From NCBI GenBank assembly GCA_002104905.1, contig MCFE01000086.1:62001-126000 (forward strand): a stretch of DNA of 64,000 nucleotides. Reading direction: 5' to 3'. A program made the translations under genes and the position numbers. The DNA comes from Basidiobolus meristosporus CBS 931.73 (Eukaryota > Fungi > Basidiobolomycota). The notes beneath the pieces were generated by a model, which did no database searches, was not told the DNA's origin, and saw nothing but the letters and a program-made list of their open reading frames with translations. Positions 8,614-43,925 of the stretch are shown here, in pieces. The number at the start of each line of letters is the position of its first letter. Within the stretch, counting starts at the first letter, position 1.

Positions 8614-11600
8614 TGTTATGATCTGCTGCCTGAAGGTTTAAGTTAGATCAGTTTTTAGTCAAATCAATTAGTATATGTTTAGGTTATCAGTATATCTGTA
8701 TTATCTATCAAATCAGTAGCATTAGTCAGCAAATGAATCAGCAGATCCTTATCACACAGAAATAGATATAGTAAGTAGGATCTTATTGGGTAATGATGAT
8801 GCAATCAAATAAGTCATCAGCAACAGCCTACATTAGGAAATACAATTACTCAGCAATTGATCTGGCAAAATGTATATAAGGAGCTGCTGGAACCTCAATA
8901 AAGAACAGTCCAAGTTTAAGTGAATACAATACTAGCTAAACTCCCTATTCCTCTACAACTCTTATACCAAGACTTGTAACATTGGTAGCAGCAATAACCA
9001 GAGACCTCCCTCCTGAAGAAGGAAGAAGCCTCCCTCAAGATGTCCAAAAATCAAGAATGGAAGAATGCTATGCAGCAAATCTTGGCCCAGCAGCAACAGT
9101 TACTCCAGATCCTTAGCCAGCAACATCAAGGAATGACTACCATGGCCCAATGCCAGCAAAACCCCGCCAAGAGCAACTTTAGTGTGAAGGCCAACTGGTA
9201 CCATGGTAGAATCAATGAAAACCTGGGAACTTGGCTCTTCCAGATTGAAAAAGCTTTCAAGGCTAAGAGAATTGCTCCAGAAAGCAAGTTACATTATGCA
9301 GCCTCTTACCTGGCAGACGCAGCATTACAGTGGTACCACAACAAGTTCAGGTCATCAACCATGATGGGATGCTCTACAATCTCTACCTGGGATGAGTTTG
9401 TGTTGGAAATTCAGGATGCCTTTAACCCCCACACCAACAGACACTATTAAGAGGAAAATTGAAGACACTCAGACAGAAAGGAATGGTCCAAGAGTACATC
9501 TATGAATATAGATGTCTACTTGGGCAAATTGAAAGAATGGACCCTCTGGATCAAGTTGAATACTTTATTGATGGGTTAAAAGAAAGAACTTGTAAGGAAG
9601 TGAATTATCAAAGACCTCAGAATATTTAAGAAGTTATCAAGATTGCCATTGACTATGACTCAGCCATGTTTGGAGTTGGGAAGCCCACAATGACTAATCA
9701 GAGAGGCTACAATCACTATGAAAGAAGACAATCAGAAGCAGTGCCAATGCAAATAGACATTATACAGAAGAATCCTACCTTAGAAGAATGTAAGAAGAAA
9801 AGACTTTGCTTTAACTGCCACCAGCAGGGACATATTGCAAAGTACTGCCCTCAGAGAAGAGAAGGACACCAGCCATCAAGAACCTTCAACTTTATTGATG
9901 CTCTGGAGCAATGTAGCATGGAGGATGAACTTGAAGAAGACTCAGAACTCACCTTCCATATGACAGAAGAGTACCTTTCCCAGATGACCTCAAACTCAGG
10001 AAGGCTATTACACTTGAATGGAGTAATCAATGGAGTACCTGCCAAAATCATGATTGACTCAGGAGCATTGCACAAGTATATGTCAGAGCAATTTGATTTG
10101 AAAGCTGAAATCAACTCAGAACCCACCATATCAACTTCAGTCCCAACTGCTGATGGGAACTCTCACATAATCAACCATACTACTCAGCCAGTAAGGATGA
10201 AGATCAATGACTATGAAGAAGATATACATGCCTATATATTTGGGAACTGCAAGTTTGACCTTGACTTGGGAAAACCTGGCTATTTTGTTGTAATCCATAG
10301 ATCAACTGGAGAACCCATGCCACTCAGATACAGAAGGACAACAAGACCTACAAGCTATTACCTGCCAGACTGGATTTTAACTTGGTCAGTTCCAGTGTGT
10401 GTGAAACAAGTGAACTTAGCAAGACACAGTTCTGTTGAGCACTACAAAAAGGCACCCAGATGTTCCTCATGGCAGTATTATGGGAGGATTCCTCTACTCC
10501 AGTACCTCAGAAGGTACAGACTCTCTTGAAGGAATATTCAGATGTATTTTCAGATGAACTTGTAAGCCTACCACCAGTCAGAGACATAGATCATGCCATT
10601 GACACAGGAGATAGCCCCCCAGTGAGTAAGACACCTTACAGAATGAGTCCATTGGAGTTGGAGGAGATGAAGAGACAAATAGATCAGTTATTGGAGCAAG
10701 GATATATCAGACCCAGCAAGTCACCATGGGGAGCACCATTTCTTTTTGTGAAGATGAAGGATGGAACACTTACACTGTTCATTAACTACAGAGCCTACAA
10801 CTCAGTTACCATGAATAATAAGTACCCCTTACCCAAGATTGATGAACTTTTGGACCAAGTCAATGGAGCCATTCTATTCAGCAAGATTGACCTCATGTCA
10901 GGATACAACCAGATTAGGGTGAAGCCAGAAGATATCCTTAAGACAGCATTCAGGACCAGATATGGACATTATGAGTACTTAGTCATGAGTGTAGGCCTCA
11001 CCACTGCCCCTGCAACATTCTTGACACTGATGCAGACTGTTTTCCAGGAGTACTTGGACAAGTTTGTGATAATCTACCTGGATGACATATTGATATACAA
11101 CAAGACGGAAGAGGATCACAAGGTGCACATTGAAAAGGTCTTGAAGAAGCTAAGAGAGAACAAGCTATATGGCAAGCTAGCCAAGTGTGAGCTCTTCAAG
11201 GAATATGTTGAGTACCTGAGACACATAGTGACTAGCACAAGAGTGACCTTAGACCTTAAGAAGGTTGAAGTTATCAAGAACCTGAAGCAGCCCCATAGAA
11301 TATCAGAGCTCAGATCATTCCTTGGAATGGTTTCCTATTATCAGAGATTTGCCAAGTCCTTTGCAAGTGCTGCTGCCCCTTTAACTGATATCCCCATGAA
11401 AGACAATAGCTACAAGTGGGACATAGCTTGTGAAACTGCCATCCACATGCTCAAGAATGAACTTGCTAAGCTGCCAAGCTTAAGAATACCTGACTTCAGG
11501 AAAGAGTTTACTCTGTGCAGAGATGCTTCCAATTATGCAATTGGTGGAGTGTTGAGCCAAGAACACAAGGGAAAGGACTACCCTGTTGCCTTTGAATCCA

Positions 11601-12475
11601 TAAAACTGAACTTAGCAGAACAAAACTATCCAGTGCATGAGAAGCAGATGCTTGCTACAATACACTGTTTGAAGACATGGAGATGCTATATTGAAGGAGT
11701 CAAATGCACTGTGACAGCTGATCATGGCTCCCTCAAGTATACATTTACTGAGAAGGTACTCTCTAGAAGAATGCCAAGATGGAGTGAATACATTCAGCAA
11801 TTTGACTTAGAGATTGTCTACTGCCCTGGAAAAAACAACATGGTTGCTGATGCCTTATCAACATTAGAACAAAATACACAACTCAACTTGGTGCATGAAT
11901 CAGATTGGCCTAGCCTATTACCAAAGTACTAGGAGGACCAAGCCATTCCTGATGAGGTGGATGAAGATACCAAGAAGATAACCCAGGACAAAGCCAGCAA
12001 ATTTACAGTACAGGATGAAACACTCTACCAAATTGTTGATGGAAGCCCTGTTGCCTATTGCCCTTATGTTTCTTGCCTGGATTTATTACATAAGCTACAC
12101 AATGGATATGGACATCTTGGAATTGAAGGAACCTATAGCCTTGTGAAAGCCAGAGCATGGTGGCCCATAATGAAACAAGATATTGAGAAGCTAGTGAAAA
12201 CAAGCCCAAATTGCCAAATCAACCAAGGCCAACCACAGAGAATTGCTGAACTCTTTCTCTTGGAGCCTGTAAGACCATTTGAATGATGCACATTGACTTT
12301 ATTGGAAGACTGCCAACTACCAGGAAATGCAACCGTTAGATCCTAGTAGCAATTGACCATGCCACCAAATGGCCAGTTGCTAAAGCTGTACCTATAGTCA
12401 TTGAACAAGAAGTTGCAAGTTTCATCTACCATGAGATCCATATGAAATTTGGATGCCCTGTGGAGATTCTTGAGT
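8614..12475 (+). mobile_element. Ty3/Gypsy family A, 3'-truncated (5' LTR 8614-8981, PBS, gag, PR, RT, RNase H, partial integrase)
   Basis: LTR TGTTATG...GTAACA followed by TTGGTAGCAGC. CFNCHQQGHIAKYC, IMIDSGA, YLDDILIY, DASNYAIGGVLSQ, HNGYGHLG. Several stops and frameshifts. Confidence 0.92.
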
Positions 12476-13479
12476 CATAACTCAGGGGCAGCAACAGCTA
12501 AACTGACTGATGGAGACTCTGTGCCTGTAATAGCTAAGAACCTACTCTCAGTCAGTAATGTAACTACTCAGGGACTGAAATCTGTTTTACTAAGCTAAGC
12601 TGGTTGATGTTAAGCAAGAATGGATAAAAATCAATATTGGGAATCAGAAATCATAATATAAAGAAGATATCATACAAGATCATTGTACCTGAGTATTTCA
12701 AAATTGCTAAAACTGAGGTGTATTTTGTTAAGACAATGAATGAGGCTTTAGGGACCTTCAAGCACCTCAAGAACACGGCAGAAGCACAAACTGGGTGTAA
12801 ATCAAAGTTACTTTGAAGTGACAATGCTAAGGAATATTGCTCAAAGGAGTTTGCAGAATACTGTTCATATGCTGGTCTATCTTGACAGTTCACTGCTGCA
12901 CATTCTTTACAGGAAAATAAAGCAATAGTAGTCATGGCAAAATGTTGAAGCTGATCAAGGGCAAGGATCTGGTATTGAGGAGAAATCAGATCAGAAAGCC
13001 ACTGAGATCATTGGCCAGCTACCTGATGATGCAATTACCACTAATGAACAAGATAGGTACCCAATACAGTCAGATAGAAAAGAAAACTCTGCTAGCACCA
13101 TATCAGAACAGATTATGCCTGTTTGGAGGTCTATCAGAATAAGAAATGCCGCTGAATTTGTTGTGATGAATTATGATTAGTTTTGGGGCTTGTTCTACAA
13201 TTTAGAGGCTAATCAAAAATATACAACAACTTCCAGTATGCTAGCACTGAAATAGTTTATTGGGAGTTTGATATACCAATAGACAATATAACTTTGACTA
13301 ATATCCTCAATCTTAGGTTCAAAATATACTATAGGCAGTGTTTCTCACTTCTACAGCAGTGTTCTGACCTTCTGTCAACTAATGGGCTTATTTACTTTTA
13401 TAGTAACTTTTCCTTATTTGAAAGTCACTTTCCTTTCTGAGAAAATGTTTCCTAATATGGAAATTCTGACCTCCCCTGG

Positions 13480-19989: not shown

Positions 19990-21460
19990 CACTGATTCTA
20001 ATCAACCTGATTCTGCTGCCTATCTTACAGTATCAGTGAAGGGATCTGATGTTAGCCTCACTGGTATCTGGGCCTAAATCACTGCTCAGCCTGTAGACTA
20101 TCTGTATTCTTTGGTGGATGAGTTTTGTGTACTTTCCAGCAGGATACCAGTTATTGGTCATCATATTCAAGTGCATGTTATTACCTGCATTGGATATACC
20201 ACAGCCATGAGCAAGATAGCAGCTTTTCTGGCCACAATAGACATTATTGCTGTATAATATGTGAGATTCAGGGGATTGGCTTCATAACTCATGCAAATAA
20301 TTATTATCTAAACACCAACACCAGGAACATCATCTTCCCACAGAGAGAACATAGCAAAGGCCACATGCAGTAAAGTTGGCAGGCTGTAAGTCATTGACCA
20401 GAACATGGAATTAATTGGAAACTGGAGAGAGTGAATATGAGGGGTATTTATTAGAGCAAGCCCTTTCCACTGGAAGCAATGCATTTGCTTTCCACAATGT
20501 TACCATACAAATGATCAAGTTGTACATGGGGCATTTCAAGCAATATGAGCCCTTCAAGATACTAGAGAAACTTGAAAGAATTGGCAAGACATTACAGGGT
20601 TACCACTACCCTTAGTACTTTGCATGGGCTTCAATTAATATTCATATTCATATTCAACAATACAATGCAAGGACTGGATGACATGGGTTTCTAATTATTC
20701 AAATGACTGTCTGAAGCCATCTCTACCATGAGTACATAGGAAGCATTGGAAGTCATATGTTGACATTATGGCTATATTTATTTGTAAGTGGATGACCAAT
20801 GCCACTTGACACATCTGCAGCTCTTATGCCCGGAGTTTGTGATGGAATCTGAGCAGCTATACCATAAACAAGAAGCTGAGCACATAGATCTCCACTGCAT
20901 GGGTTATCAGTTAAGTAAAGTAAAGATGGGTAGTGCACAATAGGCAACTAATTTCTAATAGGACAACTTTACAAAAGTATGCTGGGTCTCTCTTGTTTAC
21001 AAGCCAGCTTCTACACTATTCAGTACACAATTCACACAAATAAGGGTCAGAGTGCACCTATAAGGGGACTGGAATCCAGCTGGGAGAACAAATCTATTGG
21101 TTGAATCAATCCAGCATGTGTTTTCAAGATATATATGTTATCAGTAAAAATAGGTATATTGTAACCTTGCAGGGATCACATTAAATGCCATAAACCTGAG
21201 GTGATAGAAGTCTGTCAATTGCCACTGGTGTGTGCACATATAGAGATTAGTAGCAGGAGGTTGTAGTTATTTTTTATTCTAACTACATGTGGAATACCCA
21301 AGGTAGTTTTGGGTAGGCAAATAAGGAGGGGTGACCCTACAGTGGTAATATGAATGACACAAGGAGGGGTACAAATATGAAATACTATCTGCTATATCAG
21401 TAAGGGAGCATTAATCAGAACCAGCTGTAGGACACCATACTGCTGTTATGATGCCAGCAA
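19990..21460 (+). mobile_element. CACTA/EnSpm-like transposase remnant (middle to 3' part, with internal deletion)
   Basis: Aligns to 34180-35950 (LILINL, IGYTTAMSKIA.FSGH...CCIICEIQG). Confidence 0.75.
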
Positions 21461-21471
21461 CACAAATGCAC

Positions 21472-22510
21472 TGACACTATATAAATTCAGCAACAAGAAG
21501 TAAATAATTGTAACATTAAATATTTATAAATTTACATTGTAAATACCAGACTAGGGTATTCTCAAGATGCATATGGGGTAGCACTAAACCAATTTGGCAA
21601 CAAGGACGAGGTACCTTCATCTTTGATAGTCATAAACCAGGGTTGTGAATACCCAATTAGGGGATTTATTAAGTTATAAATATGCTGACACTGTACAAAA
21701 TAAGTAACAAGAATCAAGCTCTTGTATTTTTATCAACTTACAAAGCTGGGTTGTAGTTACTAAATTTGGACTTTTGTCAAGATACAATTATGGTGACACT
21801 GAACAAAATTGGTGACAAGGTGTAAATAATGGTATCTTTAAATACATACAAAACCTTGTTGTCAAAACCAGATTAAGGAGTTCTCAGGGTGCAAATGAAA
21901 TGACACCATATAGATTCAGCAACAAGAAATGAGCTTTTATGTCTTAAAAGTACACAGAATTTAGTTGTACTTACTAGATTAGGAATATTTTAAAAACACA
22001 ACTAGAGTGACACTGTTACAAGTCTTGGTATAAGAGTTGTAGAGGAATAGGGAGTTTAGCTAGTATTGTATTCACTAAAACTTGAACTGATTTTTATTGA
22101 GGTTCCAGCAGCTCCTTATATACATTTTGCCAGATCAATTACTGACTAATTATATTTCCTAATGTAGGTTGTGGCTGATGACTCATTTGATTGCATCATC
22201 ATCACCCAATAAGATTTTACTTAATATATCTATTTCTGTCTGATAAGGATCTGCTGATTCAATTGCTGACTAATGCTACTGATTTCATAGATTATACTGA
22301 TATACTGATAACCTCAACATATACTAATTGATTTGACTAAAAACTGATCTAACTTAAACATTCAAGCGGCAGATCATAACAACACTATACAAGCTCAACA
22401 ATAGAATACCAATTTTTATATTTTTAACAATTTACAAAGTTAGGTTGTAATTACTAAATAAAAGAGATGATAGGATACAAATCCACTGACATGGAACACA
22501 AGGTGTTTCA
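21472..22510. repeat. Degenerate tandem array, 7 units, 107-bp period, interrupted by a solo LTR
   Basis: TGACAC-type box starts at 21472, 21579, 21686, 21794, 21901, 22008 and 22487. Spacings are 107, 107, 108, 107, 107, and 107 after removing the 372-bp LTR plus TSD. Confidence 0.85.
22014..22381 (-). mobile_element. Solo LTR of Gypsy family A with perfect 4-bp TSD ACAC
   Basis: acac|TGTTACAAG...GATCATAACA|acac. Full-length match to 8614-8981 and 27652-28020. Confidence 0.93.
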
Positions 22511-22818
22511 AAAGGTCCAACCTTAATTTATAAAAAACTTCTTTGCAAACTAAATTTAAAGCTATGTTGGAATATTAAACTTGAAAGTCCAATATCAAAT
22601 CTGTAAAAAGCTTTTAAAGTCCCGAAAGTGTGATTTAAGACTTAAAGTTTGGCTTGGAAACGGTTTGAACAGTTTTAGTATCTGAGAAAATCATTTTTAA
22701 AAAATGATTACACAAAGTTAAAAATAATATACAACCTAAGAAGTTGTAGAAGAAACATCCATTTCAAGAAAAGATTAGAATAATTGATATGTCATTACAA
22801 ACATACTTATCTTGTACC

Positions 22819-24030
22819 TTATACAGTTTTTGCTTGTTCTAACTTCTTTGCATATTGTTCAGCTTTCTTCTTCAATCTAATCATTTGTTTTGTATATATC
22901 AACTTCACCTAATATTACTAACAAATCACCTATCTGAGACATAACTTGATATTCTGTAAAGTACAAAGGATTTACTTCTAATCCACATATTCTTGCCAGT
23001 TCTACAGGCCAATACATTGTTTCACCTTGTTTGACAACTAAAGATGTAAAAATGTACTCTAATATGATGCTAGTATTTGCCTCTCTACCATTAGCAATTA
23101 AATGTTTAGCCATGACAACTTGAGGGGGTTCCACTTTTTGTTCATCTAGATTTTTAACAGATTTGATCATGCTTAAAAGATCAATGGGAACATTTTTTCT
23201 CAGAAGATGTATGATATGCTTATTATTGTTAGAAACAATTTCATCTTTGGTAACATTGTTAACCATACTGGTAATAGAACTATTATAAAGATTTTTTGCA
23301 AATTGGCAATATCCTAGCCAGGCATTTATAATACTTTTCTACTTAAGTATTTGATTTTTGTACATACTGTATCTCTTTTTAGACATTAGTATAATTTTGT
23401 CATAATATCTTTGAAGCTAAGAGCTATAGGTTGAAGAAGCATACTGGTAAAATATTTGTAAATGTTATTGCACAATTGGATATAAGTGGGTGCAGGGATT
23501 GGAGAAATAGGAATGGCCATGCAGGAATCAGTGTTGCTCTATATAACTTTGACTGGATAATTATCAGATATATGGGAGCCAGTCTGATCTACATATTTTC
23601 TACCCACATGGGTAATATATTTGGTGCAACCCAAATGGCCAAAATATTCATTTTTCAAAGCTCATGGTAGTGTAAGCTCTATTGGCACTAACCATCAGTG
23701 TGTTTTGTCTACAATCAAGAATAAGTTTTGTATAAATATCTGTTTTGTGCACTTTTTTAACTTTAAGTTTAACATGTTTGGGTATATCCACTAGATTTTT
23801 AACAAGACCAGAAAGAATGCCAACAGGTGATAATAAGAATTATGTTTGTATGTTCCCATTTCTGTGGTGTTGACAATGTTGGTAGTAAACTTATTCTTAA
23901 CATAAACACACAGGCCAATATTATGAGCAACCATGATAGATGAATACAAAGACTGGAACTCTAAAATGCAACATTCTTTATATATACCATATTCAGCTTC
24001 ATTCTACTATAGTACCCTTATTCCATGACT
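22819..24030 (-). pseudogene. Family-B DNA polymerase remnant (palm, fingers, thumb), intron-less, AT-rich, virus-like
   Basis: Ordered motifs across frames: KGTIV.EAEYGIY; EFQSLYSSIMVAHNI (23916-23960, cf. DFxSLYPSIMxAHN); GILSGLVKNLVDIPKHVK; LDCRQNTLMVSANRAY; YITHVGRKYV; VI*SNTDSCM (23517-23547, cf. YGDTDS); ILMSKKRY (~23369-23392); YCQFAK; PPQVVMAKHL in the thumb. Confidence 0.88.
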
Positions 24031-24234
24031 TTGGGTGGAACACTGCTGCTTTTTGCCACTGTTCATTCACTAGTTCCCATATATCCTGGTCTTCAGCCAG
24101 CACTGCAAGGTCTAACACCTGATCTATCAGTCTTTGAAGTAAATTGCTGCAATATTCAAGTGGGTTTTTCTGATCACTGCCCTTGAAGAAATGCTCCAAC
24201 CTCCTGTGAAGCTTATTAATGATGCACGGCTACA

Positions 24235-24850
24235 CAAGTGTACATCAGAGGCATTCAGAGTCATATGTTGATCTAATAGGAGTATTTATCCAGAAGCAGA
24301 TCACTAGTGCAAACTTGACATATCTGCAGCTTTTATACAAGGGGTTTGTAATGGGATTTGAGCAGCTTTACTACAAGCATAAAGCTAAATGTGTAAATCT
24401 TTGCTGCTACTGTATCCACACGCTACTCCATCTTGCTTGGTGTATTGAGAATATTGGCCTTGCTTCACCTTTTGGAGTTTCCCATGGAGCAGATGTGTGG
24501 GGAGATAGGAAGATGAGTCAAGTTGCAGGTGCTACTATATTTCAATCTCATCAAGAATATAACCTTCAAGCCTGTCATAGATGAAATGAGTTGGCACATG
24601 GAGGACAGCCAGGAATAGTAAGAAAATACTAAAAACAGATGTGTATATGGAGATATGTATGCCTTTGGCATAAAGAGGCTACACTGCCCCCATGTGCTGG
24701 TAATCAGTTAGGTGATGCAAAGTTGGGTTGTGAGCTACAAGCAAGTAGTCTTTAGTATGAAGCTTTACCAATATATACAGGGATCCATTGGTCGCAAGCC
24801 AGTTTTCACACTGTTCAATAAGGAATACCAATTAACAGAGAACCAACCAA
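24235..24850 (+). mobile_element. CACTA-like transposase fragment (DUF4218-type region)
   Basis: GFEQLYYKHKA..CCYCIHTLLHLA.CIENIG, homologous to the 34957 ORF. Confidence 0.78.
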
Positions 24851-27651: not shown

Positions 27652-30600
27652 TGTTGTGATCTGCTGCTTGAATGTTTAAGTTAGATCAGTCTTTAGTCAA
27701 ATCAATTAGCTATATGTTTAGATTATCAGTATATCAGTATCATCTATCAAATCTGTAGCATTAGTCAGCAAATGAATCAGCAGATTCTTATCAGACAGAA
27801 ATAGATATATTAGCTAGGAGCTTATTGGGTGATGATGATGCAATCAAATGAGTCATCAGCCACAGCCTACATTGGCAAATACAATTGGTCAGCAATTGAT
27901 CTGGCAAAATGTGTATAAGGAGCTTCTGGAATCTCAGTAAAGATCAGTTCAAGTTTTAGTGAATACAATACTAGCTAAACTCCCTATTCCTCTACAGCTC
28001 TTATACCAAGACTTGTAACATTGGTAGCAGCAATAACCAGAAACATCCCTCCTGAAGAAAGAAGAAACCTCCCTCAAGATGTCCACAAATCAAGAATAGA
28101 AGAATGCAATGCAACAAATCCTGGTCCAGCAGCAACAAGGAATGACTACCATGGCCCAAAGCCAGCAAAACCCTGTCAAAAGTAGCTTTAGTGTGAAGGT
28201 CAACTGGTACCATGGTAGAGTCAATGAAAACCTGGGAATTTGGCACTTCCAGATTGAAGAAGCTTTCAAGGCTAAGAGAACTGCTCCAGAAAGCAAGTTA
28301 CATTATGCAGCCTCTTACCTGGCAGACACAGCTTTACAGTGGTACTACAACAAGATCAGGTCAGCAACCATGATGGGATGCTCTACAATCTCTACCTGGC
28401 ATGAGTTTGTATTGGAAATTCAGGATGCCTTTGAGCCCCCACATCAACAGACACTACTAAGAAGAAAGTTGAAGACACTCAGACAGAAAGGAATGGTCCA
28501 AGAGTACATCTATGAATATAGATGTCTACTTGGGCAAATTGAAAGAATGGACCCTCTGGATCAAGTTGAGCACTTTAATGATGTGCTGAAAGAAAGAACT
28601 TGTAAGGAAGTGAATTAACAAAGACCTCAGACTATTGAAGAAGCTATCAAGATTGCCATTGACTATGACTCAGCTATGTTTTGAGTTGGGAAGCCCACAA
28701 TGACTAATCAGAGAGGCTACAATCACTATAAAAGAAGACAATCAGAAGCAGTGCCAATGAAAATAGACGCTATGCAGAAGAATCCTACCTTGGAAGAATG
28801 TAAGAAGAAAGGACTTTGCATCAATTGCCACCAGCAGGGAAATATTGCAAAGTACTGCCCTCAGAGAAGAAATGGACACCAGCCATCAAGAACCTTTAAC
28901 CATACTGAGGCCATGGAGCATAGTAATACTGAGGATGAACTTGAAAAAGTCTCAGAGCTCACCTTCCATATGAAAAAGAAAACCTATCCCAGATGACCTC
29001 AAACTCAGGAAGGCTATTATACTTGAATGGAGTAATCAATGGAGTACTTGCCAAGATCATGATTGACTCAGGAGCATTGCATGAGTACATGTCAGAGCAA
29101 TTTGCTTCAAAAGCTGGAATCAACTTGGAACCCACCAAATCAACTTCAGTCTCAACAGCTGATGGGAACTCTCACTTAATCAACCGTATTACTCAGCCAG
29201 TAAGGATGAAGATCAATGATTATGAAGAAGATCTACAGGCCTATATATTTGGGAGCTGCAAGTTTGACCTTGTACTTGGGAGAACCTGGCTATTTTGTTG
29301 TAATCCATCAATCAACTGGAGAACCCATGCTACTTGGATCCAGAAAGACAACAAGACCTATGAGCTATTACCTGCCAGACTGGATTTTAACTTGGTCAGT
29401 TCCAGTGTGTGTGAAACAAGTGAACTTAGCAAGACACAGTTCTGTAAAGTAAGAAAAGGCATCCAGATGTCCCTCATGGCAGTATTAAAGGAGGATTCCT
29501 CTACTCCAGTACCTCAGAAGGTCCAGACTCTCTTGAAGGAGTATTCAGACATATTTCCAGAAGAGCTTGTAAGCCTACCACCAGTCAGAGACATAGATCA
29601 TCCCATCAAAACAGGAGATAGCCCTCCTGTGAGTAAGACACCTTATAGAATGAGTCCATTGGAGTTGGAAGAGATGAAGAGACAAATAGATCAGTTACTG
29701 GAGCAAGGATATATCAGACCCAGCAAGTCACCTTGGGGAGCACCAGTACTTTTTGTGAAGAAGAAGGATGGAACACTTAGGATGTGCATTGACTACAGAG
29801 CCCTCAACTCAGTTACCATGAAGAATAGACTTGTTTCATTGTGCCATTGATCATAGTGCCAGAGAGTGCTGTATATTCTGCTGTTAATTTGATATTTTAG
29901 GGTCATATGCATGTCAATTTTGATCCCAAATTGGCACTGTATGGCATCATATGGCACTCTGTGGCATGATCAGGCACCATCTGGCATGCTATGGCACTAT
30001 TGGGCACTATGATCAGCTGGGATGCTGGAACAAGTCTAATAAGTACCCCATACCTTGGATTGATGAGCTCTTGGACCAACTCAATGGAGCCACTATTGTC
30101 AGCAAGATTGACCTCATGTCAGGATACAAGCAGATTAGGGTAAAGCTAGAAGACACTCCTGAGACAGCATTCAGGACCAGATATGGACATTATGAGTACT
30201 TAGTCATGAGTATAGCCCTCACCAATGCCCCTGCAACATTCATGACCCTGATGCAGACTGTCTTCCAGGAGTACTTAGACAAGTTTGTGATAATCTACCT
30301 GGATGACATATTGATATACAGCAAGACAGAAGAGGATCACAAGGTGCACATTGAAAAGGTCATGAAGAAGCTAAGAGAGAACAAGCTTTATGGCAAGCTA
30401 ACCAAGTGTGAATTCTTCAAGGAACATGTTGTATATCTGGGACACATAGTGACTAGCACAGGAGTAACCTTAGACCCTAAGAAGGTTGAAGTTATCAAGA
30501 ATCTGAAGCAGCCCCATAGCATATCAGAGCTCAGATCATTCCTTGGAATGGTTTCCTATTATTGGAGATTTGTCAAGTCCTTTGCAAGTATTGCTGCCCC

Positions 30601-32517
30601 TTTAACTGATATCTCCAAGAAAGACAATACCTACAAGTGGGACATAGCTTGTGAAACTGCCGTCCAGATGCTCAAGAATGAACTTGCTAAGCTGCCAAGC
30701 TTAAGAATACCTGACTTCAGGAAAGAGTTTACTCTGTGCACAGATGCTTCCAATAATGCAATTGGTGGAGTGTTGAGCCAAGAACACAAGGGAAAGGACT
30801 AAACAAACACAGTTGCTGACGCCTTATCATGATTAGATCAAGTTGCACAACTCAACTTGGTGCATGAATCAGATTGGCCTAGCCTATTACCAAAGTATTT
30901 GGAAGACCAAGCCATTTGTAATGAGGTGGATGAAGATATCAAGAAGATAATTTGGGATGAAGCCAGCAAATTTGTAGTACAGGATGAAACACTCTAACAA
31001 ATTGTTGATGGAAGCCCTATTACCTATTGCCTTTATGTTTCTTGCCTGGATTTAATACATAAGCAACACAATAGAGATGGACATCTTGGAATTGAAGGAG
31101 CCCATAGCCTTGTGAAAGCCAGAGCATGGTGGCCCAGAATGAAACATGACATTGAGAAGCTAGTGAAAACATGCCCAAATTGCCAAATCAGCCAAGGCCG
31201 ACCACAGAGAATTGCTGAACTCTTTCTCTTGGAGCCTGTAAGACCATTTGAAAGATGGGGAATTGATTTTATTGGAAGACTGCCAACTACCAGTAAATGC
31301 AACTGTTGGATCCTATTAGCAATTGACCATGCCACTAAATGGCCAGTGGCTAAAGCTGTACCTTTAGCCAGTGAACAAGAAGTTGCAAGTTGCATGTACC
31401 ATGAGATCCTTATGAAGTTTGGATGCCCTGTGGATATTCTATCTAATAGAGGTGCAAACTTTATGGCAAAGATATTGGAAGCTTACCTGGAAATGCAGCA
31501 GATCAAGCACTTGAAAACCTTGGCATATCACCCCACAACTAATGGAATCACTTAATGGTTAAATGGATTATTTGGGAAATGCTGATCAAGTATGCAAATG
31601 GAGTTGTCAGTAGATGGGATGAGTATATAGACCAAGCACTCTTTGCATGCAGAGTTAGAGTACACAACACCACCCAGTAATTGCCATTTTACTTAGTGTA
31701 TGGATGTGAACCAAGGATTCCAGGAGATCTCACACAACCAAGGCTTACAGAAACCTTAGAGGATGAGCTCAGTCAGCCAAGTAGACACCAGCAACTGGAA
31801 CAAAGATGTCAAGAGGCACACACTAAAGTATCTCAAAGTGCAGAAAAGATGAAGCAGAGATTTGATAAGAATATAGCACCAGAAGCATTGACAGTTGGGA
31901 ACTTTGTATTGCTAAGAAACAATACTTGGAAGAAGTTTGAGCCCCAATGGACAGGACCATTCAAGATCATCAGAGAATGTCCATTTGCAACTTACCAACT
32001 AGTGGACAAACAAGGCAATATCCAAGAAGACTTAGTGCATAGGGACAGACTTAAGCTTGCAAGACTTGCTGATAATACTGAGCCATCAAGATATTGGTAT
32101 CACAAGAAAAGAGATTAAGGAGAACCCTCTCAACTTTAGCAGGGGAGCATGTTGTGATCTACTGCTTGAATATTTAAGTTAGATTAGTCTTTAGTCAAAT
32201 CAATTAGTTATATGTTTAGGTTATCAGTATATCAGTATTATCTATCAAATCAGTAGCTTTAGTCAGCAAATGAATCAGCAGATCCTTACCAGACAGAAAT
32301 AGATATACTAGGTAGGACCTTATTGGGTGATGAGGATGCAATCAAATGAGTCATCAGCCACAGCCTACATTAGGAGATACAATTACTCAGCAATTGATCT
32401 GGCAAAATGTATATATGCAGCTGCTGGATCTCAATAAAGATCAGTTCAAGTTTTAGTAAATACAATACTAGCTAAACTCCCTATTCCTCTACAACTCTTA
32501 TGCAAAGACTTGTAACA
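27652..32517 (+). mobile_element. Full-length Ty3/Gypsy family A retrotransposon (degenerate)
   Basis: LTRs 27652-28020 and 32150-32517 (TG...CA). PBS TTGGTAGCAGC, consistent with tRNA-iMet by inference. PPT AGCAGGGGAGCA. gag-CCHC, PR, RT YLDD, partly deleted RNase H, integrase with GPF motif and no chromodomain. Imperfect 4-bp TSD TCTG/TATG. Flanks rejoin the ORF2 sequence seen at 1490-1510. Confidence 0.95.
29827..30037. mobile_element. 211-bp MITE inserted in the Gypsy RT, 3-bp TSD AAT
   Basis: aat|AGACTTGTTTC...GGAACAAGTCT|aat. The empty site ATGAAGAATAAGTACCCC is seen in the sister copy at ~16620-16640 on minus. Confidence 0.9.
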
Positions 32518-35500
32518 TATGGACTATTTCCTGATTTCTCTGGGCCATTGCATCTATCCTATCAGCTACTGCACCTAATTGCTTCATCAATGCTTTGGTT
32601 TGAGCTGACAGCATACTTGCTAATATGGGTGGTGATGATGTTATGATGGTCACTTGCTGGTCTTCACCTTGGGTACTGAGTTTGCTATATTCTCATCTGC
32701 CTGAGCATAATGGTCAGCTTGTGGCTCTGCAGAGGCTCTCAATTCCCTACTTGACTGAGAGCCTGAGGAGTCTGCATTATTACCTTCAATGGGCACACTG
32801 TCCACAGGGCCTTTTTTGGATGTAGCCCTGCTTGTTGCACTGAATGTCAAAGCAAGCTGTTGTCCAACCATTCTTCTGTTGCCATCAGTAGTGGGGTTTG
32901 GTTGGGAACCAGACAACTTTGCTTTATTTTTTGGCAGTATGCATGTAAAAGTGAGTCAAATCAAAGGGGAAATAGTGATACATATATGTGTGTATGTGGT
33001 GCTAGAGCTATATTTATAATGCTTATTATGGCTGATCAGCATTGAATCTTACATTCATGTAGGTACAATGTCTCATAGACAAGACTGTCTTATGTTCACA
33101 TAAGTATTGATTAAAATGTTATATAATAGTACTATGTTGTTGAAGGTCAAACTGTTTGCCCCATGGACAAGACTACTTTGACTCAATGCCATAAGAGAAG
33201 AGAAAAAAGACCATGTGGCTATTGCGGCAGGCCTCTCAGTCATGAAGCATGCAGACAGCATAGGAAGTACTACAAGGATTGCAGCCAGTGCTTTGCTACA
33301 CAAGTCATAGTTGACCATTCATCAGTCACTACTGTACCAACAGTATCTTGCAGGCCAGTTGATACTTCTATATTGGCACCTTGCCATCTTGGTTACCTTG
33401 CACAAACTGAGTTAGGTGAGTTTGTGATGCTTTTAGGCTCACCTCAGCCTTCTGAATATGGCATGCAGAGTGATAGCTCCAACAAAGAAGGTTCACTGAG
33501 GGATACTGAGCCTATCTCCTGTAACAACAGTACCATGTATGAGCCTGGTGAAATCCCTATATGCAATGAGACCACATCTGTTGAAACATATGCCAAGGAT
33601 ACCATATGGAGCCAAGTGAGCCCAGTGAGCCATCTACTGGTGAATGATGTAATATTGTGGCTAGAGAAGTGGTATGTTTCCACTAATATCAGTAATGGGG
33701 GCTTTGAGGATTTATTACTACTTCTTGCCAAAATCATACCAGATGCAACTTACCATGTACATGGTACAAGTGGATAACTATCATGCAGCTGACAGCATAT
33801 GCTCCAGGGACTGTCCTGATTCCAGTATGTATCAACAGTTCCATGGCATTCACATCCAAAATGCTACCATTGCAACATGTCCAAATTGTTGGGAATCCAC
33901 CACCATTGAGGGAAAACATTGTTTACACTCCAGATATATTCCAGTTATACCACATCTGAGGAAGCTGATGCAGTCCAATGAATATTGCAAAGCTATACAG
34001 TACCACACTCAGTATCAATCAAGCACAAACAAATCTAATATATTATTTTATTTCATGGCAAACATTACAAACAGCTAAGAAGCAAGGGCTACTTTGAAGG
34101 TATGTATGACCATGCCTTTGCGTTAGCACTGGATGGATTCTCATTAAACAAGTACTCCTCCAACAAATCCTACTGGCCACTGATTCTCATCAATCTGAAT
34201 CTGCCGCCCATCTTATGGTGTTGGAGCAATAATCTGATGGTAGTCTCACTGGTACCTGGGCCTAAATCACCATCCAACCTGGATAGCTACCTGTATCTAT
34301 TGCTGGATGAATTTTGTATGCTTTCCAGCAGGATAACAGTCAATGGCTATCATGCAGAAGTGGATATCATTATCTGCATTGGAGATACCCCAGCCATCAG
34401 CATGATAGCAGGTTTTTCCAGGCACATTGGACAGTATTGCTGTCAAATGTGTAAGATCCAGGGGACTTACTCCATAACTCACACGCATTATTATTATTAA
34501 AACACCAGCACTAAGAACATCATCTTTCCACAGAGAGAACATACTGAAGTCAGCATGCAATTGCAGCAAAGTTGGCAAGCTATAAGCTATTGACCAGAAT
34601 ATGGAATCAATTGGAAACCAGAGATACCAAAGATAGAGGGTATCTGTTGGAGTAAAAGCTTTCCACTAGGAGCAATGCATTTGCTTTTCAACAGTATCCC
34701 TATACTGATGACCAAGTTATACATGGGGCATTTCAAGCTAAATGAACCCTTCAAGATACCGGAGAAACGTGGAAGAACTGGCAAGATATTACAGAGTATC
34801 TGCTATCTTAAGTACTTCTCACAGGCTCCAATTACTTTTCATATGAATATGCAACAATACAAATGCAAAGACTAGATGAACTGGATATGTATTTATTCAA
34901 GTGGCATTCCAAAGCCATTCCTACCTAGAGTACATTGGAAGCATTGGTCATAATATGTGAACATTGTAGGAATATTTATCCAGAAGTGGATCACCAATGC
35001 CAACTTGATGCATCTACAGCTATTGTGCAAGGAGTTTGTGATGGGATTTGAGCAGCTATACTACAAGCATAAAGCTGAACACATAGATCCCTGCTGCTAC
35101 TGTATCCATTCTCTACTCCATCTTGCTCAGTGTGTGGAGAATATTGAGCCTTGCTTCACCTTTTGGGAGTTTCCTATGGAGTGGATATGTGGGGAGATAG
35201 AAAGACAAGTCAAGTTGAAGGTGCTACCATATCCCAATCTCATCAAGAATATTACCTTGAAGTCTGTCATGCATGCAATCAGCTGGCACATGGAAGACAG
35301 CCAGGAAGAGTTGGAAAATACTGAGGACAAATGTGCACATGGAGACACCTATGCCTATGGCATTAAGAAGCTAAGCTGCCCCAATGTGTGAGTAATCAGC
35401 TAAGTAATGTAAAGTTGGGTTGGGTGCAACAAGCAACTGATTTTTATTAGGAAAACTCTACCAAGGTATGCCAGATTTCTCATGGTCACAAGCCAACTTC

Positions 35501-36785
35501 TACACCATTGAATATGGAATTCACACAAACAAAAGCCAGAGCGCACCTATAAGGGGGACTAGAATCCAGCACGGCAAAGGAATAGATTGGCTAAATGCCA
35601 AGAAGTTCTTTGCAGATATTCAGGAGGTATTCATGGCAGAAGTGGCAACAACCAAGCATATGTTTGCAAGATGTATATGTTACCAGCAGTACAAGGTATA
35701 TGGCAACTCAATTGTGGCAGGTGTGCATGTTTGTAGAGGGTGGTAAGCAGGAGTCCATAGTTTTTTTTTGATTCAAACTATATGTGGAATACCCAAGGTA
35801 GTAGTGGGTAAGCCAATAAAGAGGGGTGGTTTTACAGTGGGATATATGAATTGCAGAAGGGGAGGTAGAAAAAGGAAATACCATTTGGTAAGTTGATATG
35901 GTAGCATTGTATAGAACCAGCTGTAAGCCTCACTACTGCCATGATAATGCCATTGCAGACTTGCAGAAAGACCATCAAAATACTGTCAAGTTTCTTAGGA
36001 TAGGGTAGTAGTCTGGGTACTTCTGTCTATGGAGAACTTAATCCCTAAGTAGTATCTCAGGTCTCCTAGATTGGACATCTTGAGCTCTTTAGATAGGCTG
36101 GATTTAGTCCCTTCCAATGTTTCAAGGTTATTGGTGGCTATAATAAGATCATCTATATTAAGAGCTAATAGAGCTGGACTTGCTCAACCTGGCTTATAGT
36201 CTATACTCTTAGCTGCATTACTCCTTTTGAAACTCAGAGATTCCAGGTAAGAATCTATTTTGCAATTCTAGGCTCTTAGTGATTGTTTGAGACCATATAG
36301 AGACCTTTTGAGCTTGCAGACCAAATGGGGGTTATCTTGGTCAGCAAACCCACCAGGCCGGTCCATATACATGTCTTCAGCAGGTTCTCCATTCAAAAAT
36401 GCAGCTTTTACATCCATATGATGAATAAAAAACATATATTTTGCTCCAATAGCCAATATCAATCTGATGTAATTAAATTTGGCTACTATTGCAAAGGTCC
36501 TAGTATAGTCATGTCCTTTTGTTTGTGAGTATCCTTTAGCCACAAGTCTTGCTTTGTATCTTTTGATTGTGCCATCAGTCATATATTTTGTCTCAAAGAC
36601 CCATCTGCATCCAATTGATTATTGGTTGATTGGTAATTTGACTAGGTTCCAAATATGATTTTCCATTGGGGCCTGATATTCCACAGTTGGTGAAAGTCTT
36701 CAACACTTTGTCTGAGGGCTATTCAGGGCCTCTTTTACAGTCTGGGGCTCATGAATATGGACTGAGTAGGCATAGGCTAAGTTTG

Positions 36786-38897: not shown

Positions 38898-41800
38898 TGT
38901 TGTAAAAATTTGTATTCCACCAAAATACTCACCTAATGTAGTCACTTAGATCATTACCTTCAAATCATAGAGAATACTGACCAAGTTCCATGTTGGGATT
39001 TGATTAGAATACTTTCACCAAAAATCCAGGTACCCAGAACATGAAAATTAGATAAGTTGTTCAAACAGCCCCAAACTTTGCACACATGTTCTTGGGACCT
39101 TCCTTAACCTAATTCCAAGTGTTTGTTATGCCAAGGCCATGTAAAAGTGTAAATACTACTTTTACATTCAATAAATCATTAAGTAAAAACACATAATCTA
39201 CTTGTTCTCCCAAACACTTCCAATATCTTCAAGACTCTTGCAACAGCTGATGAGCACAAAGCTGTCACTCTTTGCAATGTCTACTACTGCTATTACTGGA
39301 ATTTCTTGCTCTGCTGAAAAGTTGGATGGATCTAACTACCAAGTGTGGAAGGCGAAGATGAAGATGCTGCTACAAGAAAGAGGCCTTTGGGATATTGCCA
39401 TGGGAGAAGAATGCCCTCCTAAAAATGTGGGAGAGGGAGCCTCAAAGTACCAGAAGAAAGAACAAAGTGCCTTTAAATGCATTTGCCTTAATGTTAAAGA
39501 CAAACTGCTAACTCAATGCCCAAGAGCAAAAATGGCAAAGAATGCCTGGAAAGCATTAGAAGACACCTACCTGCCATGTTCAGCTGCTAAGAGAATGTAT
39601 CTGAGACAAAAATTCTTAACTATAAAGATACTACCAGGAGAAGAAATGAAAAATCTAATTAACAAAATTACCCTGCTTGTGGATGAAGGGGAATCTGTGG
39701 GTGTACCAACTACCAATGAGGATGTGACTGTTACCATCCTGAATAGTCTGACAGACAGGTTTCAGGGCCTTGTATCAGCCCTAGAGTCCAGAACTCAAGA
39801 TTTGACCTTAAATTACATATATGGAAGGCTCCTGGTGTTGTAAAAATTTGCAATTTCACCTAAATATTTGCCTAACTTAGTCACTTAGATCATTGCCCTC
39901 AAATCCTAGAGAATACTGACCATATTCATTGTTGGGATTTACTTGGAATATTTTCACTAAATACCAGGTACCCACAACATTAAAATTAGATAAGTTGTCC
40001 AAACAGCCCCAAACTTTGCACATATGTTCTTGGGACCTTCCTTAACCTATTCTATGTGTTTGTAATGCCCAGACCATGTAAAAGTATAAATACTACTTAT
40101 ACATTCAATAAATCATTAAGTGAAGACCAAATAATATACTTGTTCCCTTAATCACTTCCAATATCTCCAAGACTCTTACAACACCTGGATGAAGAATTAA
40201 GAAAATCAAGTGCCAATAAGAAGGAAGAATAAAATGCTTTAATAAGCAATGATAGCCAACAAAGGAGGTACCCAAGACCCTACACAGGCAACAGCAATCT
40301 GATTTGTAACTACTGCAAAAGGAAAGGACATACAGCAGACTAGTGCTTTGAGAAGAGAGATAGTCAGCAGAAAAAGCCTGAATATGGAAATGATGCAACA
40401 ACTGAAGATAGACTACTCATATCCACACTAAATATGACCACAAACAAGGATTCTCAGACATGGTATATTGACTCTGGAGCATCTCAACACTTTACACACC
40501 AAAAAGAACTTTTTACCCAATACCAAGAAATCCAATTAAGAAGGTTTTCATTGGTGACAATAGAACACTTGATGAGGTGGTAGAAGGAACCGCCAAGTAA
40601 ACCTAAGAAGCAGTGAAGGAAGCCATACACTGACCTTTAAAGAAGTACCCTATGTACCAGAAATAGCCAAGAACCTACTATCTGTAAGCAAGGCCACAGC
40701 AGAAGGACTCAGCTTCAGCTTTGACAATTCTGAATGCAGGGATCACTGATCAAAATGGTGCTCATATTGCTTTGGGTATCAGAGATCAGAATATATACAA
40801 ATTGGCTTATATTCCATCATATTTGGAAGCCAATATAAGTAACTTGAATGAAGAAACACCAATGCTTTGGCACAGGAGATTTGGACACATCAATTTTGAT
40901 TATTTGCACAAAATGATCAAAGATCAGCTAATTTCTGGTTTGAAAAATGATCCCCTAGTTAATTTGAAGCACTGTGAAGCCTGCATATTTGGGAAACAAG
41001 CCAGACAACTGTTCAAGAGCTCAGGTTTAATCAAAATTAAGAAAAAATTAGATCTAATTCACTCACATCTGTGTGGACCTAGGCAAAATTTATCCTTAGG
41101 CAGGATGAAGTATTGAATCACTTTTAGTGATGATTATACAAGATACATGTGGGTTTACTTCATGGGGAGAAAGGAAGAAGCTCTGTCTAAGTTCAGGGAG
41201 TTGAAAGCCATGGTGGAGAGAGAAACTGGTGAAAAAATCAAGAAAATATGCACTGACAATGGTGGAAAATATACCTCAAAACCTTTCTTTCACTTCTGCA
41301 AAATTCATGGGATAAAGCAAGAGACTACTGTACCATACTCCCCACAGCAAACAGAGTAGCAGAACGTGATAACAGATCAATAATGGATATGGCAGGATCT
41401 ATGATACACTATCAAAGATTCTCACATGATTTTGGGCAGAATTAGTTGCCACTGTGGTGTATCTTAAAATAGGAGTTATAGCAGAATAATTTGTAATTCT
41501 ACTCCATTTGAAGCATGGTATGGATACAGACCAAGTGCAGAACATCTAAGAATATTTTTGTGTACAGCATATGCCAAGAAACTGCCCAGAAATCAGTCAA
41601 AATTTGGGCCAAAAGTTTAAAATGCTTATTTTTGGGCTATTGCAGTGAGAGTAAAGCATACAAACTCTACAATACCAAAGCAAAGATGCTAATCAAGTCC
41701 AGGGATGTGTTGTTTGATGGAAATTCAAAATTTTAACAAAAAATGACATCAGATGCTGACAAAAATCTGATCTCATGTCCACTGTTGTAAGGATTGAATC

Positions 41801-43925
41801 AGAGCAAAACAATGAGAATTTTCTCACTCCAGAGGACTCTGCAGCCATGGTTCAGCCATGATCAGTGCCCAGGAATATCCCAGAAGTGATCATTCCAGTA
41901 TCAAATGCCTGGAGATTCAGTTGGACAAGAAACAGCCCAACTTTCTATATCAATGAGGGTACAAACTTAACCTATGCCTATTCAGTCTATATTGATAAAC
42001 CCTGGACTGTAAAAGAGGCCCTAAATAGCCCTCAGACAGAGTTTTGGAGATCTGCAATGACTGAGGAATATCAGGCCCTGATGGAAAATCAAACTTGGAA
42101 CTTAGTCAAATAACTAATCAACCAAAAATCAATTGGATGCAGATGGGTCTTCAAGATAAAATACAAGGCTGATGATACAATTGAAAGATACAAAGCAAGA
42201 CTTGTGGCCAAAGGATACTCTCAAACAAAGGACTTGACTATACTGAGACCTTTGCACTGGTAGCCAAGTTTAACTCCATCAGATTACTATTGGCTATTGC
42301 AGCCAAATATAAGTCTTTTATTTATCAAATGTATGTAAAAGCTGCATTTTTGCATAGAGAACCTGATGAGGACATTTATATGGACCAGCCTGATGGGTTT
42401 GCTGATCAAGATAACCCCCATTTGGTCTGCAAGCTTAAAAAGTCACTATATGGTCTCAAACAATCAGTAAGAGCCTGGAACTGCAAGATAGATTCTTATT
42501 TGGAATCTTTGAGTTTCAAAAGGAGTAATGCTGACTATAGTATATACTACAAGCCAGATAGAGCAAATCTTGTTCTATCAGCTCTATATGTGGATGATCT
42601 TATTATAGCTGCCAATAACCTAGCAACATTGGAAGAGACTAAATCCAGCCTATCTAAGGAGTTCAAGATGTCTGATCCAGGAGAACTCAGTTACTACTTA
42701 GGGATTAAGTTCTCCATAGACAGAAGTACCCAGACTATCACTGTAAGCCAATCCAAGTATATTCAAGATATACTAAAGAAGTACCAGATGGAAGACTGTA
42801 AACCGGCAGCTACCCCAATGGAGACAAACCTTAACTTGGTCAAAACTCAACCAAATCAAGAGAGCTTGGTGCCCTCTGAAAGCCCTGACTTTCCTTATCA
42901 ATCTATGGTCAGCAGTCTGATGTATATTATGCTTACAACACGTCCAGATATCTCATATTCAGTGGGAGTTGTCAGCCAGCATAATCAGAACTATGGATCT
43001 GATCATATTGAAGCAGTTAAGCGGATTTTAGATACCTAAAAGGAACTGCTGATACCTGCTTAAGATACACTTAAAAGGATCTGGAACAGGATCTTGTGGG
43101 ATACTCTGATGCAGATTGGGGACAAAATTTGGAAGACAGAAGATACACCACAGGATACACCTTTCTTTACTGTAAAGGAGCAATTTCATGGAATTCAAGA
43201 AAGCAACCAACCATAGCACTATCTACCACAGAGGCAGAGTACATGGCAGCCTGTGAGGCTACAAAAGAAGCAATGTGGTTAAGAAATCTTTTTACAGATT
43301 TAGGCCTATGTCAAAAAATGCCCATTACTTTATTTCAAGATAATCAAGGATGTATACAAATAGGTAGAAATCCAACTTTTCATGCTAGAACCAAGCACAT
43401 AGATTTTAGACATCATTTCATATATGACAATATAGAGAATAACTTAGTTGGCTTAGCTTACTGTCCTACAGATGAAATGATTGCAGACATATTTACCAAA
43501 CCACTAGCTAGAGAAAAGTTTGAATATCTTAGGTCACAATTAGGACTAGTCAGTGTGAACATTTAGCCAAGTGGGAGTATTGTAAGAATTTGTATTCCAC
43601 CTAAATATGCACCTAACTTAGTCACTTAGATCATTACCTTCAAATCCTAGAGAATACTGACCAAGTTCCTTGTTGGGATTTACTTGGAATATTTTCACCA
43701 AAATACCAGGTACTCAGAACATGAAAACTAGATAAGTTGTTCAAACAGCCCCAAACTTTGCACACATATTCTTGGGATCTCCCTAAACCAATTCTACATA
43801 TTAGATATGCCAAGACCATGCAAAAGTACAATTACTACTTTCATATTCAATAAATCATCAAGTAAATACCACATAATCTACTTGTTCTCCCAATCACTTC
43901 CAATATCTCCAAGACTCTTACAACA
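38898..43925 (+). mobile_element. Full-length Ty1/Copia family 1 element (degenerate), 5-bp TSD CCTTC
   Basis: LTRs 38898-39245 and 43578-43925. PPT AAGTGGGAG. Order gag, PR (WYIDSGA), GAG-pre/IN (LWHRRFGH, CEAC, TDNGGKY), RT (LYVDDLII), RNase H (GYSDADWG..LSTTEAEYMA..ADIFTKPL). Confidence 0.95.
39836..40183 (+). mobile_element. Copia family 1 solo LTR inside the gag of the full-length copy, TSD CCTGG
   Basis: cctgg|TGTTGTAAAA...CTCTTACAACA|cctgg. Confidence 0.93.

Follow-up and report, generated by a model that had tools for sequence, protein, structure and literature searches.

Analysis of a 64-kb window of the Basidiobolus meristosporus genome (the whole stretch of DNA considered here) revealed the remains of a family-B DNA polymerase (PolB) within a cluster of transposable elements (TEs). 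With high confidence, we read these remains as the dead, single-copy C-terminal half of a fundsalphavirus-type PolB, whose likely source is a small cytoplasmic replicon with giant-virus ancestors but no capsid, and which was then likely eroded through CpG methylation. The fossil had been noticed in an earlier sequence-only reading of this DNA. Its family is not novel, having already been described as fundsalphaviruses, host species included (Gong et al. 2020, PMC7017919, excerpts), and the locus adds a further, more decayed member to it. Its value is that of an entry point, since two intact, circular-mapping relatives of 35–37 kb, tied to Mortierellaceae, make the question of the donor raised by Maumus et al. 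2014 (PMC4083422, excerpts) directly testable in culturable fungi.

Motifs, breaks and composition of the fossil

Six-frame translation placed the fossil, the C-terminal half of a polymerase of the RNA-primed family-B type, on the minus strand at approximately 24030–22877 (Table 1). All expected polymerase motifs were found there in the correct order, as first noticed in the sequence-only reading, and are spread over two frames: KGTIVE (24019–24002), the motif A stretch EFQSLYSSIMVAHN (F at 23958), GILSGL (23821), LDCRQN (C at 23713), SANRAY (23689), motif C as a stop followed by SNTDSCM (N at 23535), SKKRY (23383), CQFAK (23308), and PPQVVMAK (23128). The frame is broken by four frameshifts (~24001, ~23841, ~23653, and ~23409), the fourth being the one near 24001 that the upstream KGTIVE piece requires for itself, and by two in-frame stops (23541 and 23341). 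The few frameshifts of the earlier reading are hence counted as four, its single stop becomes two, and its motif A, given as DF, reads EFQ. In this motif (EFQSLYSS) the catalytic Asp reads Glu, and in motif C the expected YGDTDS has become stop-SNTDS, on account of which we consider the gene dead. With both catalytic motifs altered and the frame broken six times, the polymerase is, judging from its sequence, without present function.

Three of the four single-frame pieces matched PF00136 in colinear order, a search that had been proposed as a check, and the fourth, the motif C piece, gave no Pfam match. When read across the frameshifts with an X at each break, the fossil aligned with residues 446–809 of the 820-residue intact relative P0002 at 160 of 364 identical positions (44%), and tblastn of P0002 on the window gave an E value of 1e-44, against a best E of 0.26 on the reversed window used as decoy. 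The exonuclease half was found nowhere in the 64-kb window by the same tblastn search. Since gaps relative to intact relatives comprise only a few residues, no introns are needed; the intron-less state and the missing C-terminal Cys motif (no C4 zinc finger) agree with the earlier description. An alternative C-terminal tail at 22905–22819 would need a fifth frameshift. The 129-aa thumb ORF is already in public protein sets (P0001), and querying 1.84 billion representative proteins with the thumb piece retrieved 36 matches (E ≤ 0.001), most of them polymerases of ~750–880 aa or their fragments. A word-seeded search with the same piece and a pattern scan of viral contigs found nothing, and a PDB sequence search returned weak matches only, to Pol alpha, archaeal, and delta polymerases (E 0.07–0.87).

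A protein-primed PolB, the type that killer plasmids use, would have reached the genome with a Polinton, a linear plasmid, or a killer-plasmid-type element, and we give this origin practically no weight. Fungi of these phyla do carry such plasmids (PMC13348850, excerpts); the fossil pieces and their intact relatives, however, match PF00136 and PF03104, while PF03175 is not the main match and is additionally listed in 1 of 120 rows, and the relatives carry a D5 primase-helicase. The assignment to RNA-primed rather than protein-primed polymerases, made from the motifs alone, is therefore upheld.

The fossil has a GC content of 31.6%, compared with 47.1% in the host genes and 39.3% in the TE zone, and contains no CpG where 29 would be expected. 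The observed/expected CpG ratio is ~0.05 in the TE zone (bases 1–46,000) versus ~0.76 in the gene region, and 0.63–1.2 in intact relatives; the greater AT-richness than host genes and the CpG depletion like that of the neighbouring TEs had both been recognized beforehand. All seven Arg codons of the fossil are AGA. Among 78 family-conserved columns, 27 are changed in the fossil (the median of 26 intact members is 4%), and the fossil is more decayed than the Basidiobolus proteins P0015 and P0156, in which 4 and 3 of 28 conserved columns are changed. A codon-level CpG test was suggestive only (a C precedes 7 of the 14 G-to-A changes, against a background of 28%; p = 0.065), and the loss of Arg at conserved columns was not significant (p = 0.17). 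The density of TEs and the loss of CpG suggest that the locus is heterochromatic and methylated, and silencing by 5mC followed by deamination would have removed the fossil's CpGs.

Genomic setting and support for the assembly

Bases 1–46,000 of the window consist of Ty3, copia-like, and tnp2-type remnants, the Ty3 and copia labels being taken from ORF reading. Decayed Ty3-type elements with one common LTR family, a copia-like element, and tnp2-type remnants occupy 8614–12286, 27652–32517, 39187–43566, and 33130–36000. Between 45000 and 47000, the CpG ratio switches sharply from ~0.05 (TEs) to ~0.76 (genes) within ~1 kb.

Homology to PolB stops near 24048, which is the start of a high-copy repeat. 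Insertion of this repeat, or a deletion at ~24048, would have removed the exonuclease half together with the neighbouring genes. Retrocopying as the origin of the 5′ truncation was rejected, as there is no poly(A) and the cut coincides with the high-copy repeat. On the other side of the fossil, the AT-rich flank (Table 1) may be non-coding DNA of the donor; none of the 12 six-frame translations of both AT-rich flanks matched Pfam. The AT-rich stretch 21457–22460 contains degenerate direct repeats at offsets near 108, 214, and 322 bases, 64–89% alike and split by the solo LTR. Its LRR-like look was unsupported, with no Pfam match in six frames.

Table 1. Features of the fossil polymerase and its immediate surroundings (window positions)
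Feature	Position	Strand	Evidence or remark
5′-most surviving PolB piece (SWNKGTIVE, before motif A)	24002..24030	-	matches Y.G..V..P stretch of relatives; followed by frameshift ~24001
Palm, motif A piece (EFQSLYSS)	23842..24000	-	PF00136 52-98, E 8.6e-5
Fingers/motif B piece (GILSGL, LDCRQN, SANRAY)	23654..23839	-	PF00136 118-171, E 3.2e-5
Motif C piece, stop at 23541	23410..23652	-	tblastn and frameshift-aware alignment to P0002
SKKRY, stop 23341 and thumb	22877..23408	-	PF00136 271-443, E 2.3e-3; terminus where intact relatives end; no C4 zinc finger
Possible alternative C-terminal tail, other frame, uncertain	22819..22905	-	picked by 1 of 3 frameshift-aware alignments
Single-copy AT-rich flank (27% GC), possibly non-coding donor DNA	22382..22876		six-frame Pfam without match
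Solo Ty3-type LTR, 4-bp ACAC target-site duplication, inserted in AT-rich flank	22014..22381	-	91-94% identical to LTRs 8614-8984, 27652-28023, 32150-32517
High-copy repeat, starts where fossil is cut off	24048..24229		read-contig depth rises from ~75 to >1e5
tnp2-type DNA transposon remnant	24230..24826	+	80% identical to 34967-35520, downstream of Transposase_21 ORF

Short-read contigs from two runs of one sample, which may be the assembly's own, cover 22465–24088 and 22359–24088 with zero differences and repeat all breaks. Their depth over the fossil is 76 and 74, with 91 on a neighbouring near-unique contig, and this confirms that the fossil is a single copy and that its breaks are genuine. 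On the left, one of these contigs covers 23 bases of the LTR and so bridges that junction incompletely; on the right, both cover the first 41 bases of the repeat. Neither crosses the two TE junctions with 31 or more bases. A run of another sample (X4) left the fossil uncovered, which is uninformative. It is very unlikely that the locus is an assembly chimera or a contaminant whose breaks are sequencing errors: the fossil does lie between high-copy repeats, and the read evidence is short-read throughout, but the contigs carry the same breaks at single-copy depth and extend into the adjoining repeats as given above, and the fossil's CpG loss matches that of the TE zone, whereas intact relatives keep ratios of 0.6–1.2. 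The window's alkaline phosphatase is 100% identical to a B. meristosporus record and 76–79% to B. ranarum. That the fossil is integrated in the fungal chromosome follows from its single-copy depth in short reads, the TEs beside it, its loss of CpG, and the presence of Basidiobolus genes elsewhere in the window.

No second viral gene was found in the 64-kb window, where, among viral genes, ORFs from 160 loci and three near-complete elements match only PolB. D5, the D6/D11 helicase, a methyltransferase, and RPB1/2/5, which are present around intact relatives, are absent from the window. At two of the three published B. meristosporus loci, likewise, only TEs flank POL (PMC7017919, excerpts).

Relatives, phylogeny and the fundsalphavirus family

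Over the fossil's columns, identity is 65–67% to the Basidiobolus proteins P0015 and P0156 (134 columns), 43% to the closest intact relatives P0002 and P0044, and 21–24% to ten Pol delta-type rows; two pitho-like references also reach 21–24%, no higher than Pol delta. Named relatives come from Basidiobolus, Bifiguratus, Linnemannia, Mortierella, Podila, Spizellomyces, Rhizopus, Clydaea, Ramaria, and the alga Spirogloea, and most others are metagenomic proteins. In a quick tree of 105 rows, with references hand-picked from 242 loci and 175 proteins, SH-aLRT support was 100 for the fossil with Basidiobolus, 99 for a 31-row family, and 99 for a 72-row clade that unites it with pitho-like rows and with rows that we take to be irido-like. 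A careful tree of 29 rows (LG+G4, without Basidiobolus rows) gave 100/100 for the family and 98/94 for the family with the pitho-like and irido-like rows, which it joins jointly, not resolved as sister of the pitho-like rows. The pitho-like reference rows L014 and L056 were taken as Cedratvirus A11 and Orpheovirus (PMC5786535, excerpts). Both trees are without verified Pol zeta, Pol alpha, herpes, mirus, baculo, or Polinton references, and they include one Spirogloea protein and no Physcomitrella sequence.

Descent from the Pol delta or zeta of the host, as a processed or decayed pseudogene, would fit the RNA-primed motif set and PF00136 of the fossil, its lack of introns, and its 5′ truncation, yet we hold such an origin to be extremely improbable. 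Grouping of the fossil with the six Pol delta rows carrying zf-C4pol was rejected in the careful tree (AU p = 0.00047), a tree with no verified Pol zeta row, and the identity to Pol delta lies well below the 43–67% shared with family members. The zf-C4pol domain occurs in 7 of 7 eukaryotic references and is absent from P0002 and P0044, and the fossil has neither a C4 zinc finger nor a poly(A) after its stop. Descent from Pol delta had been named in the sequence-only reading as one of the outcomes that would overturn it, and both the topology test and the identities speak against it.

Gong et al. 2020 (PMC7017919, excerpts) recorded PolB fossils of Pithovirus-related fundsalphaviruses from 14 fungi, among them B. 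meristosporus with three copies. We tied the fossil's relatives to these published sequences by organism and contig size: P0015 lies on a 92,759-bp contig and P0009 on a 3,791-bp contig, and two of the published loci are printed with the same figures. Because P0015 and P0009 match these loci, and the fossil groups with P0015 (100) and with P0009 (family 99–100), it is a member of the fundsalphavirus family on the published figures available in those excerpts. It seems to be distinct from the three B. meristosporus copies given there. Like the published members, it falls in their PolB clade, comes from a host species among those listed, carries stops and frameshifts, and has retrotransposon neighbours; it differs in being more decayed than the two other Basidiobolus proteins and in keeping no second viral gene. 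The term fundsalphavirus occurs in one paper only (PMC7017919), and Ariadnavirales, considered as a name for the group, turned out to be unrelated.

Other integrated sequences provide closer or more distant parallels. The NCLDV-like regions of Physcomitrella (Maumus et al. 2014, PMC4083422), placed inside the fundsalphaviruses by Gong et al., are described in the excerpts used here as silent, methylated like TEs, and without major capsid protein (MCP) and packaging ATPase; they differ from the fossil in their plant host and in having up to 16 ORFs per locus. In the same excerpts, a plasmid origin was judged unlikely, and a tiny virus, a fragment, or a plasmid donor was left open. Mycodnaviridae (Myers et al. 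2026, PMC13533422, excerpts) and an asfar-like endogenous viral element (EVE) of Rhizophagus (PMC10640383, excerpts) are likewise Nucleocytoviricota integrated in early-diverging fungi. The former, however, have MCP, reach 350 kb, and lie near Imitervirales/Algavirales, and the latter is a 1.5-Mb region with VLTF3. Earlier EVEs are called distinct clades by Myers et al.

Several family PolBs come from organisms found nowhere in the table of Gong et al. as excerpted, namely P0144, P0145, P0017, P0159, and P0018 from Ramaria (a basidiomycete), Clydaea, Spizellomyces, Rhizopus, and Spirogloea. The accession of the Spizellomyces protein begins with YP_, possibly a sign of an organellar record. Giant-virus-like PolBs (L169 and L175 by tree, L225 by sequence) and the eukaryotic-like L200 sit in bacterial MAGs, where they are probably mis-binned.

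Intact relatives and the nature of the donor

Statements on the donor draw on relatives at 31–35% identity to the fossil, not on the locus. One of these (L164) lies on a 37,136-bp contig, G001:C3 (L243, L244), that was binned into a MAG of Mycoavidus, an endobacterium of Mortierellaceae. Its PolB groups with Linnemannia and Podila records in the quick tree, and the contig is probably a fungal element mis-binned with the endobacterium. A 1146-codon frame crosses the two ends of this contig, and one uninterrupted alignment to a homologue (44%) continues past the join, which makes for a circular map. Among the contig's 33 ORFs of at least 70 aa are those for PolB, D5, RPB1 (split in two), RPB2, RPB5, a D6/D11-type helicase, and a capping enzyme, as well as DUF5757 (presumably early-transcription-factor-like), UDG, a flap endonuclease, a protein with a lectin domain, and several small secreted-looking ORFs. 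No MCP, A32, or VLTF3 was detected by Pfam in 33 of 33 ORFs or in six frames, a search without a positive control for divergent pitho-type MCP; a VLTF3 match in G001 sits on another contig and below the cut-off.

A 35,106-bp IMG/VR contig has 16 genes in common with G001:C3 and a 116-bp direct terminal repeat, which recurs inverted inside the same contig. A third contig of 51,666 bp (49,249 bp read) carries 13 of the genes of G001:C3 together with a MutS-HNH protein, a helicase, and a phage-type lysozyme. Under the same Pfam search, again without a positive control for divergent pitho-type MCP, capsid, A32, and VLTF3 were not found in 18 of 21 ORFs of the former, nor a capsid gene in the 49,249 bp of the latter. 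Across the relatives, the neighbour genes (D6/D11-type helicase, capping enzyme, D5, RPB1/2/5, UDG, and FEN) cover the shared set reported by Gong et al. (PMC7017919, excerpts), and the core of PolB, D5, RNA polymerase, and capping enzyme is present in the relatives only, not at the fossil locus. Twelve Mortierellaceae-like relatives lie on contigs of at least 25 kb (six at 35–37 kb, two at 26–31 kb, and four at 70–95 kb); other family contigs reach 137 kb, and the most complete readable relatives are 35–52 kb.

The circular-looking relatives of 35 and 37 kb carry the replication and transcription core, and neither a capsid gene nor a packaging ATPase or late transcription factor could be detected in them. 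To judge from this gene content, the fossil probably derives from a small capsid-less cytoplasmic replicon and not from a large virus. Of the endogenised large DNA virus proposed in the sequence-only reading, the endogenised PolB of Nucleocytoviricota ancestry stands, while "large" is doubtful, given readable relatives of 35–52 kb and no capsid gene. Since an RNA polymerase and a capping enzyme are encoded by the relatives themselves, the donor would have replicated in the cytoplasm. Capture of its DNA may have been passive, for instance at a DNA break, given that the relatives yielded no integrase.

A conventional, large, particle-forming pithovirus-like virus, of which the small contigs would be fragments, segments, or integrated arrays, is a possible donor that we regard as rather unlikely. 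The family branches with pitho-like viruses, some of its contigs measure 70–137 kb, and a 17-kb record (G002) with inverted ends and without D5 and RPB2 could mean segments; a recurrence of 57 bases at 12919–12975, however, makes an internal repeat the probable explanation of these ends. Pitho-like viruses themselves are without A32 (PMC5786535, excerpts), and their MCP is a divergent, minor virion protein (PMC12724359, excerpts), so that structural genes could escape Pfam. Against a large virus stand the frame and the single homologue alignment that run across the ends of G001:C3, the terminal repeat of its 35,106-bp counterpart, and the lack of matches to MCP, A32, and VLTF3 in both; the moss copies are also without MCP and A32 (PMC4083422, excerpts), and MCP was reported in 0 of 40 non-zoosporic fungi, with one MycoCosm match (PMC13533422, excerpts).

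Two known systems bear comparison with the small capsid-less replicon. Pitho-like viruses (Cedratvirus, Orpheovirus, and Pithovirus; Pimascovirales) form the neighbouring PolB clade and have circular genomes and their own transcription machinery, but their genomes measure 0.6–1.5 Mb, with MCP and VLTF3 genes and particles, in contrast to the relatives of 35–52 kb with none detected (PMC5786535, PMC12724359, excerpts), and their PolBs are ~1000–1100 aa, compared with ~800 aa in the fossil's family. Killer plasmids and virus-like elements of yeasts and zygomycetes are cytosolic, capsid-less DNA (PMC13348850, excerpts), an analogy in working only, as they are linear and 9–13 kb long, whereas the relatives map as circles and have an RNA-primed PolB with D5. 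By a modest margin over even odds, we favour the broader proposal that fundsalphaviruses are not giant viruses but capsid-less, plasmid-like descendants of Pimascovirales. They would be circles of ~35 kb and up that retained the core genes of replication and early transcription while losing those for particles and late functions. Still intact today, they would reside in the cytoplasm of fungi of early-diverging lineages, and also of streptophyte algae and mosses, with secreted cargo like that of killer plasmids, the fossil being nuclear scrap of one of them. No description of closed, capsid-less members was found in the literature searched, which mostly excluded subscription papers; two large surveys (PMC13524828 and bioRxiv 10.1101/2025.04.19.649669) may include such elements. 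Should the relatives be free capsid-less replicons, a giant-virus lineage would have become an endosymbiont of fungi resembling a plasmid, one that surveys of fungal giant viruses based on the capsid are bound to overlook.

Mortierellaceae-type relatives encode a protein of ~1100–1250 aa with a signal-peptide-like start and a B-lectin domain (L245:9523-12936; L163:1-2748; L243:2-1861 with L244:17641-19065), which weakly matches lectin-like bacteriocins (E 0.0035). By analogy with killer plasmids, such secreted lectin-type genes are possibly cargo. The maps of Gong et al. (PMC7017919, excerpts) show chitin-binding and HET neighbours. A conserved 214-aa protein of the relatives yielded a low-confidence AlphaFold model (pLDDT 54, pTM 0.35), and a 464-aa protein gave a weak ankyrin-like lead in Atlas (scores <0.85). 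In the 51.7-kb relative, the phage-type lysozyme has a peptidoglycan-binding domain and the MutS-HNH protein is a fusion (L001:3522-4514, L250:13306-16056). Many genes of the same relative are preceded by AAATTGA, a possible counterpart of the mimivirus early promoter.
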